Origin: Octopus vulgaris
Taxonomy: Eukaryota
Length of the DNA stretch: 64,000 nt
Direction of reading: 5' to 3'
NCBI GenBank assembly: GCA_951406725.2
Contig: OX597827.1
Coordinates: 27,280,001 to 27,344,000 of the forward strand
Notes under the pieces: generated by a model
Seen by the model: only the letters and a program-made list of their open reading frames with translations
Told to the model about the DNA's origin: nothing
Databases searched by the model: none
Part shown: one piece after another, positions 12,407 to 61,424 of the stretch
Position numbering within the stretch: position 1 is the stretch's first letter
Layout of the letters: each line of letters opens with the position of its first letter
Program-made: the position numbers and the translations under genes

Positions 12407-12972
12407 AATCTATAAATAAGGATAATATCGATATTATCAAGTGGCCAGCATGGGAAAAAATACCATACAAAGGTAATAATTTTTTACAACTAAAAATAAG
12501 GGTGTCTGAGAGACACCACCGTGCCGAAATAGCAGTCAAATCCCTGACTCTAAGAACCACCTTAAATGTTCATATCACACCATGAGATAAGATAAAGGGA
12601 CAAAATAAACTAGCAAAAAGATATTACTGAATAATATTACTGTTTGGCGGGCAATTTGAACTGGCCTTGTACATACGTGCATATATACGTATGTATGGAC
12701 GTTCGTATATGTAAGTATAACGTTTGTTCTGTATATATATATTTGTATTTATGTGCCCATCTGATATATTCAACTGATGAAGGCAGTGCTTATTTGAAGC
12801 AAAACTAGAAATCCAGGATCTTGAATTATTCAGTAATATCTTTTTGCTAGTCTATTTTGTCCCTCTATCTTATCTCATGGTGCGATATGAATATTTAAGG
12901 TGGTTCTTAGAGTCAGGGATTTGACTGCTATTTCGGCATGGTGGTGTCTCTCAGACACCCTTATTTTTAGTT
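12407..12972. mobile_element. Fold-back hammerhead element in (TA)n
   Basis: Inverted arms 12488-12635/12825-12972 with a hammerhead in the spacer. Confidence 0.85.
12761..12833 (+). ncRNA. Type I hammerhead ribozyme (predicted)
   Basis: ATTCAA-CTGATGA(12774)-irregular stem II-GAAA(12808)-TCCAGGA-TC^TTGAAT; distal CTGA/TCAG pairing. Confidence 0.8.
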
Positions 12973-13044
12973 ATATATATATATAAATATAAACATATAT
13001 AATATATATATATATATATATATATATATATATATATATATATA

Positions 13045-13256
13045 ACTTGATTTCGAAACGTACGTCCGTGGATAACTAAAAAAATGTATGATAGATTGCA
13101 GTCAATTCATTCTCTCTTACCTGTTTGTGTCTGCCTTCCAAATGCTGTTTTTACTGAGATCTCCCTTTTTAGTAGAAGAAATAGCTATAACCCTTTGACT
13201 GCTATTTCTAAATTCGGTATGTGGTAAGGCAACTCGTTGCTAAACCCTTATTGCTT
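13045..13256 (+). mobile_element. Truncated TA-inserted element beginning with the 3' half of a hammerhead
   Basis: CGAAA-CGTACG-TC at 13054-13066; unique 210 bp between (TA)n tracts. Confidence 0.6.
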
Positions 13257-14778
13257 ATATATATATATATATATATAATATGTATATATATATATATATA
13301 TAAATATAAACATATATAATATATATATATATATATATATATATATATATATATATATATATATATATATATATATATATATATATATATATACTTATAT
13401 ACTTATGTATATATAATACACATATATATACTTATATATATAATGTGGAATGACTCTATTATTATAGTTGGTTCCAGTCTCACCAAATTTGGTACATGGG
13501 AAAGTAATATTGATGTTGTGTGCATGTATACATACATACTTATACACACACATATATATGTATATTTTATATATATATATGTATATATATGTGTGTGTGT
13601 GTGTGTGTGTATATATATTTATACATACACACACATACATATATATTTCCACATGAGCATGTATGTCTTTACAGATGTGCATATATGCAAACATGTATGT
13701 GTACATATGTGTGTGTATGTGTGTGTACACATGTAAATATAATATATATAGAGTCACTGAAACAAAACACCAAACTAATTAATACACTTACTCTGGGCTG
13801 AACCAATTCCTTTTCCAACTTCTGCCTCTAACCTTACAAATCCTTCCACCCCCTCCACTTCTCCATCCTCTCCACCCTCCTTACCATCTCCCTCTACCCA
13901 CCACTTTTTTACTCCCCTCTCTCTAACCACACACTTCTTTTGCCCATTCCTCACCTCACACTACTCCTCTTGCCACTCTCATATACACCTTACCTCTTAC
14001 CATATCTCTCACCACCCCCATCACCTTTTTTCCACAGACACACATCCATCTATTCCATTTCTGTCCGCAAATTCCCCATCTTCATCCCTGGGTAAATTCT
14101 AGGTCCTACCCCCTCTTTTGGCCACACATTCTCCCACCACCACTACCACCTTGTCATCTTATATTTGCCTCTAGTTCAACATTTGCCGGCCAACACACAT
14201 TGCTTCTTCTGTCTCACTTCTCCCATCTCGTTCTTGTAAAACGAACTGACTTGAGGTTAAAATGAAGGACACATGCTAAATAAATAGACTTGTGGTGCGC
14301 GCGTGTGTGTTAGGTTTTGTATATTTTATGTCATTCATTTGTCCTGCCCTGCGCTGTTTTGTTTGCCTGCCTGCCCTCACTCTTACATTTATATTATTCA
14401 TTCTCAACCACTCCTATGAAGGTCTGTCGGCAACGATGCTTGACAAAATGGCTGGAAATAATCGGGCACATTCCTTTACATTGTGAGCCTGGTTCTTGCA
14501 GAGTCAGTCCTTCAGGAAATGGATGAGAACTGTGTGTGTATTTATTTACGTACGTACATTTGTGTGCGTGTGTATGTTTTATATATATGCATATATATAT
14601 ATATATATAGTTATATATATATATATATATATAGGCACATATATATATATACATATATAGGCATATATATATATATATATATATATTGATAAAACGGTAA
14701 GATAACAAAAGAAAGAAAGAGACCTCAATATTATGTAAATAGAGGAAATTTATCTATGCAATATGTTACATTACTCGG

Positions 14779-14852
14779 TAGTCAAGATAAAACTCTGAGT
14801 TTCAGATGCCGAAGTGGAAATCCACAACACCATCTCTTCGGTTATCTGGCTA
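14779..14852 (-). ncRNA. Type I hammerhead ribozyme of P1 (predicted)
   Basis: Reverse complement of 15969-16042. Confidence 0.75.
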
Positions 14853-57974: not shown

Positions 57975-58363
57975 CAGTAGAACCTCACAGTACAAGTGCC
58001 CCATTGTACGAATGAGTAATTTACTGTACGAGCCGAGACTCGTGCAAATTTTTATCTTGAAGTATGGGCGGAAATCCAGAGTACGAGCACACAAATCGAA
58101 CCATCTTTAAGGTAATTCAGTTAATAAAACCAGTTTGCATATTTCTTTTGCATTCTCTTTTTTATAATTGTCATTTCACTTATAACTACACTTTTTCTTG
58201 TTTAAAACCCATGGAAATCTATTTTTGAGTAGTTTTTTGGGGCAGGAAAGGATTAATTATATTTTAGTTAATTTCAATGGCGAAAATTAATTTGTAAAAT
58301 GAGTAAATCGTAAGACAAGCTGAGTCATGGAACGAATTAAACTTGTACTGCGAAGTATCACTG
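57975..58363. mobile_element. pogo/Tigger-type MITE
   Basis: TA-CAGTAGAACCTCACAGTACAAGT...ACTTGTACTGCGAAGTATCACTG-TA. Confidence 0.75.
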
Positions 58364-59054
58364 TATTTCTAATTCACTCTTAGAATTAGATTAGAAAATT
58401 ATTGCGCCATTTGCTGTGCATTGGGATTAAGACTAGTTATGTAATTGTGGAATAAGATTTTTAACCACACGGCCATGCTTGCACTCTGTGTGTATATGTT
58501 TGCACACTGTGTGTGTAATTAAAAAGCACATTTGTTTCCCGACCACATGAGTTTGGGTTCAGTCCCATGCCTGATACCTTGGGCAAGTGTCTTCTACTAA
58601 AGCCCTGGGGTCAATAAAGCCTTTGTGCGTGCGTGTGTGTGATAATGATCATGATCATCATCATCATTGCTGGCTTGGGTTGGGTGGGTAGACAGGAACT
58701 GGCAAGTGGCAGGATGGCCCCAAGCTCTATTGTCTGCTAGGACTCACCCTTGGATGCCCTTCCTAATACCAACCACTTCACTGAATGTACTTTTTACATG
58801 GCACATCCATGTATGTGTGTACATACACACACTCAGATGGACATGAACATGTATATAATATATAGGTATATGTTGTGTATATACAAACACATATGCACAC
58901 ACACACACATGAACACACAGACACATACTGCCATGCAATGCATACTTATGTATATATACAAGCATACATACACACATGTACACATATATGAAGATACATA
59001 CATGCATGTATGTATATGTATATATATATATATATATATATATATATATATGTA

Positions 59055-61064
59055 CAAATTGAGATAGAGATTGTAAATGCAACCCTCTATGGGATAACGT
59101 ATATCCAATATACTGCTAGTGAAGTACCCAACAAAGTTAATACATAAATGTTAATGATTGCGATGCAATCAATTCATTTACTGTATTATATGGTCAAAGG
59201 TAAAATGATTTACCACAAATTACTAATACAAGATAAGAAAATGGAGAAATACATCTGAATCAAATATCAATTACCAGATAATACTCAATCCCATACTTTA
59301 ATAAACCACCACATAAGAGACTGTAGGGTTAAATATTAAAAGCAGAACAAATCAGTGTACATAAAGGAATGTACATAAAAAAGTGTACATAAAAGAGTAA
59401 TGTTGTATAATAATTAGAATATATATAAAAAAGAATATAAATACAAGTAAATATAAATATAAGTATAAATTAGATCTTACAGCTGTTTCGGCCATGTCGA
59501 TAATTATGTCTCATTTTACCAATATTAGCCCTTTATGGTTGGTCAATATATAGAGACATTAACAAAAATATCACAAAGCCTCTTCGGAGATTATGTAATA
59601 TAACAGTCTACACATATACCCCCATGGGTGTGGGTGCGTACACACAATACAACATATATATATACATATGAGTGCATATACTCACACTCCTATACATTTA
59701 CATAATGATATAAATAAATAATATAAATTAGTAAACATATATATGTGTTCCACACCCAATGTCTCAGTTTTTCAACTTAATATTGTGATATTAAACATAC
59801 ACAAATTAATACCTAGATGTAAATATACATAGTCAATAGTACATTATATTACTTCATAATAGTTTCCAAAGTGTCATTAAAGTTAGTATCATTATCGTTG
59901 TCAATACAATTAATGTTATCATTGTTATCATTCATAATATTATTAATAACTCTTACATTATGATCCAGAGCAGAATATATGTATGTCCGTGTTCCAGTTA
60001 ATAATTTTCCTTATGGCATAAATATACTATTGGATTTGAATTTAAAATTATTATTATCTTCCTCACAGTTAGTCAATTGAGAACCGCCCGACCTCCACCA
60101 ACCTTACAAGCAAAACATACACATCCACATCTAACCCTAAACCCATACATCCACACAGAGACTCACACACACATGTACACACACATGAATACACCCCGAC
60201 ACATCTCTACAATAAATTGGAGAGTGCATGTCTGTCATCGTATTGCTTATAGACATATCAGTACAGGCAGCAGTGTCTAACACTAACACGCACATCCGCA
60301 TATACGCATAAATATTAATACACTTTCCTATACTGTGTCAGGGAACTTTCGCACACACATATATATATATATTTTTAAATATATATCTGCGCACTCATAC
60401 GTACAAATAAAACCCATATTTATATCTACCCATGAATGAATATTCGCACATACATATATACACATCCAAGCATGCACCTGCGTGCTTATATATGTAATAA
60501 AAACATACATCCGTACATCCACCCACGATCATACCTATATGTACAAAAACATATATACTTACACATACACATTTTCACACACCTACAGAGGTTACTATTA
60601 ATTTAGAATAAGTTTATTAATTATAGGTTAAATTAATTATAGATTAGTAAGTACCAAATAAACAAAAATAAAATAATTAAATAAATAAATATGAATATAT
60701 ATATACATACACACACATATATATATATATATATATATATATATATATATATATATATACACATACACATATCCATGTATAGATAAATAGATAAATAAAA
60801 TAGAATACAAATTAAGGAGGGCATAAAGATAAACCTAATATAGTGAGTATAAAAATAAAAGAAAAAAAAAGGGAATCCCACATTATATGCTCATCGAAAT
60901 AAACAACTTATAGTAATTATAGACTCTTACATATTACATATTGGTATATTAAAAACTCAAACTAGTGCCCTAAGATATGATGCACCTATACATCTTACAC
61001 CTATAGTATTATCTGGTAATTGATATTTGATTCAGATGTATTTCTCCATTTTCTTATCTTGTAT
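59055..61064 (-). mobile_element. Non-coding hammerhead-bearing element in (TA)n with 60-bp inverted end
   Basis: Hammerhead 59474-59591. 61005-61064 is the reverse complement of 59226-59285. The 3' ~200 bp are homologous to 16105-16311. Confidence 0.8.
59474..59591 (-). ncRNA. Type I hammerhead ribozyme with long stem II (predicted)
   Basis: ATCT-CCGAAGA-GGC..(ATGTCTC/GAGACAT)..GCC-GAAA-CAGCTG-TA^AGAT. Confidence 0.88.
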
Positions 61065-61077
61065 ATATATATATATT

Positions 61078-61424
61078 TCTGTGTGAGTTAGAGGTTGGGA
61101 AACCAACCAACTAAGGGATAGAAGCCTAGAGGCACATTCATCTTCCAAACTTTATCTGGCCATCCCTACAGAACACTGAAGAGATGGAAATGGCTTTGAG
61201 AATTTCTTTGCCTCTTGGCAGAAACGGCCGTAAGGAACTAGCACCTACTGACAATCTGATCATTTGCTCTTTTCTATAAGATTAGTACATGTGTGTGTAA
61301 CATAGTTATTATATGTGTATGTATTCTTCTAATACATTCTATTACTTTTGAATAAATAGACATACTAGAATGTTTATCGGCTGATGTATGTCATTCTTGC
61401 ATCCTCTCCATTTTCTTATTTGCC
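61078..61424 (+). mobile_element. TA-inserted element with core-deleted hammerhead
   Basis: TTTCT-T-TGCC tctt GGCA-GAAA-CGGCCG-TA-AGGAA (61203-61237). Confidence 0.55.

Follow-up and report, generated by a model that had tools for sequence, protein, structure and literature searches.

Hammerhead motifs with palindromic helix III in Penelope-like elements of an Octopus vulgaris locus, and evidence against a general family code

Results

Hammerhead motifs in a 64-kb window

The DNA analysed here (the window) is a 64-kb stretch of the Octopus vulgaris genome with 35% GC and dense microsatellites. It contains short hammerhead ribozyme motifs with a palindromic helix III, and coding remnants of two families of Penelope-like elements, designated A and B (Table 1; motifs are cited by a single coordinate, with the strand where needed). 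An initial annotation had listed eight palindromes directly following GAA, and all eight strings were found where it had placed them. The motifs are very probably minimal type I hammerheads that several Penelope-like families carry in their 3' terminal repeats, with palindromes that do not constitute a selected family code. The copies in the window are mostly dead, 5'-truncated or inverted, and lie in (TA)n.

The window was scanned with a descriptor of the type I hammerhead (core CYGANGA, stem II of at least 3 bp, GAAA, 3-14 nt, UH, stem I of at least 4 bp), which contained no palindromy requirement. Seven matches representing five families were obtained: 14800-, 16021+ and 34072-, all of family A, and 19423, 31670-, 38771 and 59486-. 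The segment between GAA and the cut was a perfect palindrome in six of these and palindromic with G-U pairs in one, whereas 100 block-wise (local) dinucleotide shuffles gave on average 0.18 matches and no perfect palindrome. Since a descriptor lacking a palindrome rule returned palindromes in all seven cases, the palindromy is real and was not selected for by the search. This bears out the earlier argument that the repeated palindromy supports the fold calls. The calls themselves stood at the five sites that pass the descriptor and, with some reservation, at 12811, which fails solely on the length of stem II and is probably a genuine motif in decay. Only half a motif is present at 13058, and the call at 61224 is not supported.

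The core boxes CUGANGA...GAAA...UH were present in type I order at 12811, 19423 and 31670, and with the substitution U4C (CCGANGA) in family A and at 38771 and 59486; they were absent at 13058 and 61224. U4C (positions 34113, 38746 and 59587) thus occurs in three of the six core-bearing motifs, against one of 117 descriptor rows in related loci. Lower activity in vitro has been reported for this substitution (PMC3088659), which may be a lineage trait or a sign of decay.

GAA plus a palindrome alone was found in 28 rows (6.8 +/- 2.5 in shuffles), 19 of which fall outside every site cited in the initial annotation, and is therefore weak evidence for 13058 and 61224. The Rfam scan gave no match at the gathering threshold, and among the matches listed from the E-value scan (150 of 544) all were microsatellite-driven; the repeat search of the window was likewise dominated by microsatellites. 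There was no relative among 208 pattern matches in a viral sequence collection.

Family A and family B elements

For the family A reading frame, 7999 candidates were scored and 337 proved homologous at E<=1e-20. The C-terminal GIY-YIG domain of the frame, whose Pfam match is weak (E 0.008, below the cut-off), is preceded by CxCX5C, in which C354, C356 and C362 are invariant. The motifs RWK and DKT are present in the consensus of 41 aligned homologs, the window copy itself being 5'-truncated. Judged by its sequence, family A thus has the features that characterise the Hydra clade of Penelope-like elements, a clade that inserts in (TA)n and carries hammerheads (PMC8557442). The family A hammerhead lies about 200 nt past the stop codon, and the element ends about 25 nt further on, in (TA)n. 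The motif reported at 16021 is the hammerhead of an inverted family A piece, and ACTCAGAGT occurs three times in the window as copies of one young element. When words were sampled from 34040-35830, 82-89% of them were found in sequencing runs under seven organism labels, which suggests a young family spread across several species or horizontal transfer.

The remnant of the older family B is 35-39% identical to family A and its relatives, and the family B hammerhead (31670) lies about 1.2 kb beyond the end of this remnant. A terminal position in a Penelope-like element was thus seen for the three family A copies and for 31670. Families A and B share a strand and lie head to tail with a (TA)n tract between them (31505-35831), and their hammerheads are 2.4 kb apart. 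This arrangement would amount to a natural mixed tandem, for which a heteroduplex of +3.1 kcal/mol is predicted. At 44518-44661 lies a decayed segment related (73%) to the 3' end of family B, in which no hammerhead is recognisable.

Table 1. Penelope-like coding remnants, hammerhead motifs and associated inserts in the window
Feature	Position	Strand	Description
Inverted copy of 12825-12975	12485..12635	-	96% identity; copied part begins 4 nt past predicted cut of 12811
Probable hammerhead (12811)	12768..12826	+	CTGATGA core, helix III ATCCAGGAT, 6-bp stem I, weak stem II
Element lacking its 5' part, with a (TA)n tract on either side (13058)	13045..13255	+	hammerhead 3' half only: GAA ACGTACGT C, 13055-13066
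Second, shorter family A copy	14748..15638	-	99% amino acid identity over 198 residues; hammerhead 14785-14847
Inverted 3' copy of family A	15639..16109	+	joined at 5' end of second copy; hammerhead 15974-16036
Decayed hammerhead in decayed fold-back (19423)	19394..19436	+	helix III ATTGTGAT, which needs G-U pairs to pair with itself
Family B hammerhead (31670)	31656..31746	-	CTGATGA core, helix III ACAATTGT, 6-bp stem I
Remnant endonuclease end, family B	32934..33373	-	older Penelope-like family
Family A hammerhead (34072)	34057..34119	-	3' untranslated region; core CCGAAGA (U4C), helix III ACTCAGAGT, 6-bp stem I
Family A Penelope-like open reading frame (ORF)	34314..35831	-	5'-truncated, 505-residue frame; reverse transcriptase, CxCX5C linker, C-terminal GIY-YIG
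Hammerhead at fold-back tip (38771)	38740..38785	+	CCGACGA core, helix III ACCATGGT; arms 38570-38745, 38782-38957
Hammerhead (59486)	59474..59591	-	CCGAAGA core, helix III ACAGCTGT, 4-bp stem I, stem II with a long loop
Hairpin + GAA + ACGGCCGT (61224)	61209..61237	+	multi-copy repeat; like hammerhead 3' half, unsupported

Pairing of helix III and stem I

The computed energy of helix III folded as a monomer hairpin was +2.1 to +4.8 kcal/mol. Homoduplexes lay between -6.4 and -14.1 kcal/mol, except that of the decayed 19423 (+2.2). Among heteroduplexes of the window motifs 25 of 28 pairs were at -0.2 kcal/mol or above, the remaining three being at -5.7, -4.3 and -2.2. Stem I gave at best -2.8 kcal/mol in cross-family pairing, against -4.6 to -11 with itself. 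Heterodimers are disfavoured in silico, an outcome equally expected of a by-product, and on these computed energies a preference for homodimers in the window is likely.

In the clean 8- and 9-mers of the window, complementarity extends to central positions that cannot pair in a monomer hairpin (rough P 1e-4 to 1e-5), suggesting intermolecular pairing. This agrees with the statement in the initial annotation that minimal type I hammerheads with palindromic stem III cleave as dimers, which is matched by the anatomy of the motifs and by PMC4209133. On topological grounds, pairing of helix III between molecules would put the cut strand on the partner, making stem I intermolecular as well. Partner choice would then not be made by the palindrome alone, and since diverged families would discriminate by stem I and helix III together, a homodimer preference needs no selected code.

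Palindromes and families in other genomes

The initial annotation had proposed that each family uses a different palindrome and that such palindromes form a self/non-self barcode. Within the window the strings of the families do differ, but as a general rule the statement fails, and the barcode is contradicted, by sharing in Hydra, Aedes and three metagenome or metagenome-assembled genome (MAG) assemblies. In the table of Hydra magnipapillata (PMC8557442 File S2) 14 families carry eight strings, and ACTTTAAGT is found in five of the families. By our tally 12 of the 91 family pairs are identical, most of them with stem I also in common, and in 13 of the 14 families the string begins with ACT. 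(Hydra families 1 and 18 agree in motif and flanking sequence and could represent a single terminal repeat.) In Aedes, families 1 and 3 have the same 10-nt palindrome and the same stem I (PMC4209133 Fig. S3).

Palindrome was tabulated against family, as had been suggested earlier for the whole genome, for relatives of the family A protein. Among 98 related loci, 67 had an assignable hammerhead and 31 had none. The hammerhead lay downstream of the locus's own ORF in 50; the 17 loci with a hammerhead only upstream were all excluded from the sharing count because two of them looked misassigned on the tree. Clustering at 90% identity reduced the 50 loci to 40 families with 28 strings, and the string of window family A, ACTCAGAGT, recurred in five of these. 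Strings were uniform within all seven multi-member families. Family pairs of the same assembly had an identical string in 5 of 37 cases (shuffled mean 1.0, P(<=obs) 0.998) and common arms in 14 of 37 (shuffled mean 5.5), so that sharing was above chance; the excess persisted when clustering was done at 80, 70 or 60%. Two loci of one assembly (L002 and L037), 49% identical in protein, both carry ACTCAGAGT with different stems I. In a quick tree the arms ACTC-N-GAGT turned up on several branches distant from one another; no order of events was drawn from this tree because family A stands on a long branch. If seven or eight families were drawn from this reference set, all strings would be distinct with P 0.47-0.77, and the all-distinct strings of the window are therefore unremarkable.

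Twenty of the related loci (L079-L098) are animal Penelope-like elements in contigs filed as bacterial genomes, 12 of the 20 in one MAG; contamination with host DNA is the most likely origin.

Other motif sites and inserts

Motifs other than those of family A and 31670 were found in short inserts that contain no ORF and are either flanked by (TA)n or built as fold-backs. At 13058 a (TA)n tract occupies the position expected for the 5' core, and this element and that of 12811 have a 15-nt 3' motif in common. The helix III of 19423 appears to have been altered by CpG decay. At 38771 an inverted copy of downstream sequence supplies, with its tip, the 5' strand of stem I, and this is probably so at 19423 too; at these sites stem I is therefore not independent evidence. 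Further pieces, at 5380-5620 and 28536-28646, are akin to the 3' ends of the elements bearing 38771 and 19423; that at 5380-5620 also forms a fold-back but lacks a hammerhead.

In the fold-backs at 12635/12825, 19398/19432 and 38745/38780 the inverted arm ends no more than about 4 nt from the predicted cut. Such ends could have arisen when cleaved RNA was reverse-transcribed, or by a template switch at stem I. Penelope-like elements typically leave truncated and inverted copies. The idea that inverted copies ending at the cut are a trace of cleavage in vivo fits the three window sites but is not general, since none of 33 rows in related loci starts within 29 nt of the cut.

No stem I is formed between the CTGAAGA at 61176 and the bases past the 61224 palindrome. 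A rescue of 61224 by assuming a deleted core box was rejected: among the variant rows listed, the 702 contigs of run X1 had no insertion near 61207, and the majority letters of the contigs disrupt the candidate stem I without supplying a core. Other runs gave no contig (X12), one (X13) and six (X6) for this repeat. The segments 16061-16311, 59011-59261 and 61078-61424 belong to a high-copy (TA)n-flanked repeat group, with contig depth highest at 61090-61120 and 61210-61233. A dispersed repeat, probably a short interspersed element, occurs at 648, 8647, 16732, 17408, 18775 and 26841, ending in GAAACTGAAAGAAGC followed by a microsatellite.

Discussion

Palindromic helix III, action as dimers and the presence of many families per genome have been published (PMC4209133, PMC6765202, PMC3088659), and strings of the Hydra clade, an Octopus family included, are already tabulated (PMC8557442). 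A literature search found no proposal of a palindrome code, its coverage of the dimer and retrozyme literature being incomplete. In the window, the anatomy of the motifs, the linkage of two families to an ORF and palindromy beyond chance were established. Following published work, helix III would be unstable as a monomer hairpin, and two copies, normally tandem repeats on one transcript, would pair their palindromes, form a double hammerhead and be cut. A double hammerhead of neighbouring copies is the published model (PMC4209133, PMC6765202, PMC6466107, PMC7229834). Selection would maintain the self-complementarity of helix III, A15.1-U16.1 and H at the cut, and the palindrome of a lineage would be inherited, drift by paired changes, and be reused and re-evolved across lineages. 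Homodimer preference would be a by-product of stem I and helix III pairing between molecules.

Chance matches of GAA plus palindrome in AT-rich repetitive DNA might seem an adequate explanation, given the 28 such rows, the lack of a full core at 61224 and 13058, the negative Rfam result at the gathering threshold, and monomer folds that are mostly unremarkable (z from +0.5 to -3.3). As an account of the whole set its probability is close to negligible: the full descriptor exceeded its null, the motifs stand at the 3' ends of elements, and the same architecture recurs in 67 of the 98 related loci. Chance is thereby refuted at five sites, and may hold for 61224. It is also very improbable that the 8-10 nt helix III acts mainly as a protein-assisted monomer hairpin, the palindromy being merely that of two hairpin arms. 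Twelve of the 18 ten-mers in relatives have imperfect centres and could fold as 3 bp plus a tetraloop, and the hammerhead of one Penelope-like element required the protein of the element to cut (PMC11167929). However, all 19 nine-mers and three eight-mers in relatives are complementary at positions that a hairpin cannot pair, as are the clean palindromes of the window.

A selected self/non-self code would mean that co-resident families diverge in their palindromes and so avoid non-productive or parasitic heterodimers. It is consistent with the distinct strings and weak heteroduplexes of the window and with the uniform strings within related families. Against it stand the string common to 5 of 14 Hydra families, the likeness of Aedes 1 and 3, and same-assembly sharing that was above the null and not below it at all four clustering thresholds. 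Dimers are moreover thought to arise between tandem copies on one RNA, which makes cross-talk cheap (PMC6765202), and in the element studied in PMC11167929 cleavage was dispensable for insertion in vitro. We therefore regard a selected code as very unlikely: it is contradicted as a general rule, and a slim possibility is left for this genome. The form in which it might apply is that here, unlike in the Hydra and metagenome hosts, co-resident Penelope families were driven to combinations of helix III and stem I that do not pair with each other, because dimerisation in trans would allow a family to cleave another or to be poisoned by it. This version, to which we likewise give little credence, draws on the unusual diversity of arms in the window together with the weak computed heterodimers.

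Several points weigh against type I hammerheads of Penelope-like families with palindromes that are not a selected code. When arm class (first 4 nt plus length) was considered, seven or eight reference families were all different with P 0.02-0.24, so the arms in the window show more diversity than those of the reference set, the sole result to favour the barcode proposed in the initial annotation. The reference set is biased, consisting of relatives of one protein from few host pools; the arm-class result is weakened in turn, since the window families may come from several clades. Metagenome assemblies may mix hosts, and kinship inflates same-assembly sharing. In this genome the comparison of palindrome with family relies on 6-8 motifs, and only two motifs (34072 and 31670) are tied to an ORF.

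The window adds a few Penelope-type hammerheads of an already tabulated kind, and the comparison yields a useful negative: helix III is not a family barcode, since palindromes are reused among co-resident families. Were a code true here, competing retroelements would offer an uncommon example of selection acting on RNA-RNA recognition, and nature would have provided an orthogonal set of dimerising ribozymes. Whether selected or not, the window motifs could serve engineering as an orthogonal set.

The closest known systems are the hammerheads of Hydra-clade Penelope-like elements (PMC8557442), which likewise have a 3' position, (TA)n targets and an 8-10 nt palindromic helix III. The string of Penelope-3_HM, ACTCAGAGT, is identical to that of window family A, and the Octopus family Hydra-1_oBim has ACCA-A-TGGT, with arms equal to those of the 38771 motif (both PMC8557442 File S2). 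The window differs from the Hydra clade in U4C, absent from the published Hydra rows examined, in the lack of an unpaired base after A9 in family A, and in an ORF link confined to families A and B. The minimal hammerheads (min-HHR, PLE-HHR) of metazoan Penelope-like elements (PMC4209133) are also alike: they are type I with a short stem I and palindromic 15.2-16.2 plus loop 3, occur in many families per genome with single or opposite-strand copies from truncated elements, and are proposed to act as dimers. The helix III of the window motifs (8-9 nt), whose cleavage is predicted, is longer than in the loopless minimal form of that study. Finally, in avocado sunblotch viroid (ASBVd), newt satellite 2 and axolotl retrozymes (PMC6466107, PMC7229834) an unstable helix III is similarly rescued by palindromic dimerisation, those ribozymes residing in viroids or tandem retrozymes and the window motifs in retrotransposon terminal repeats.

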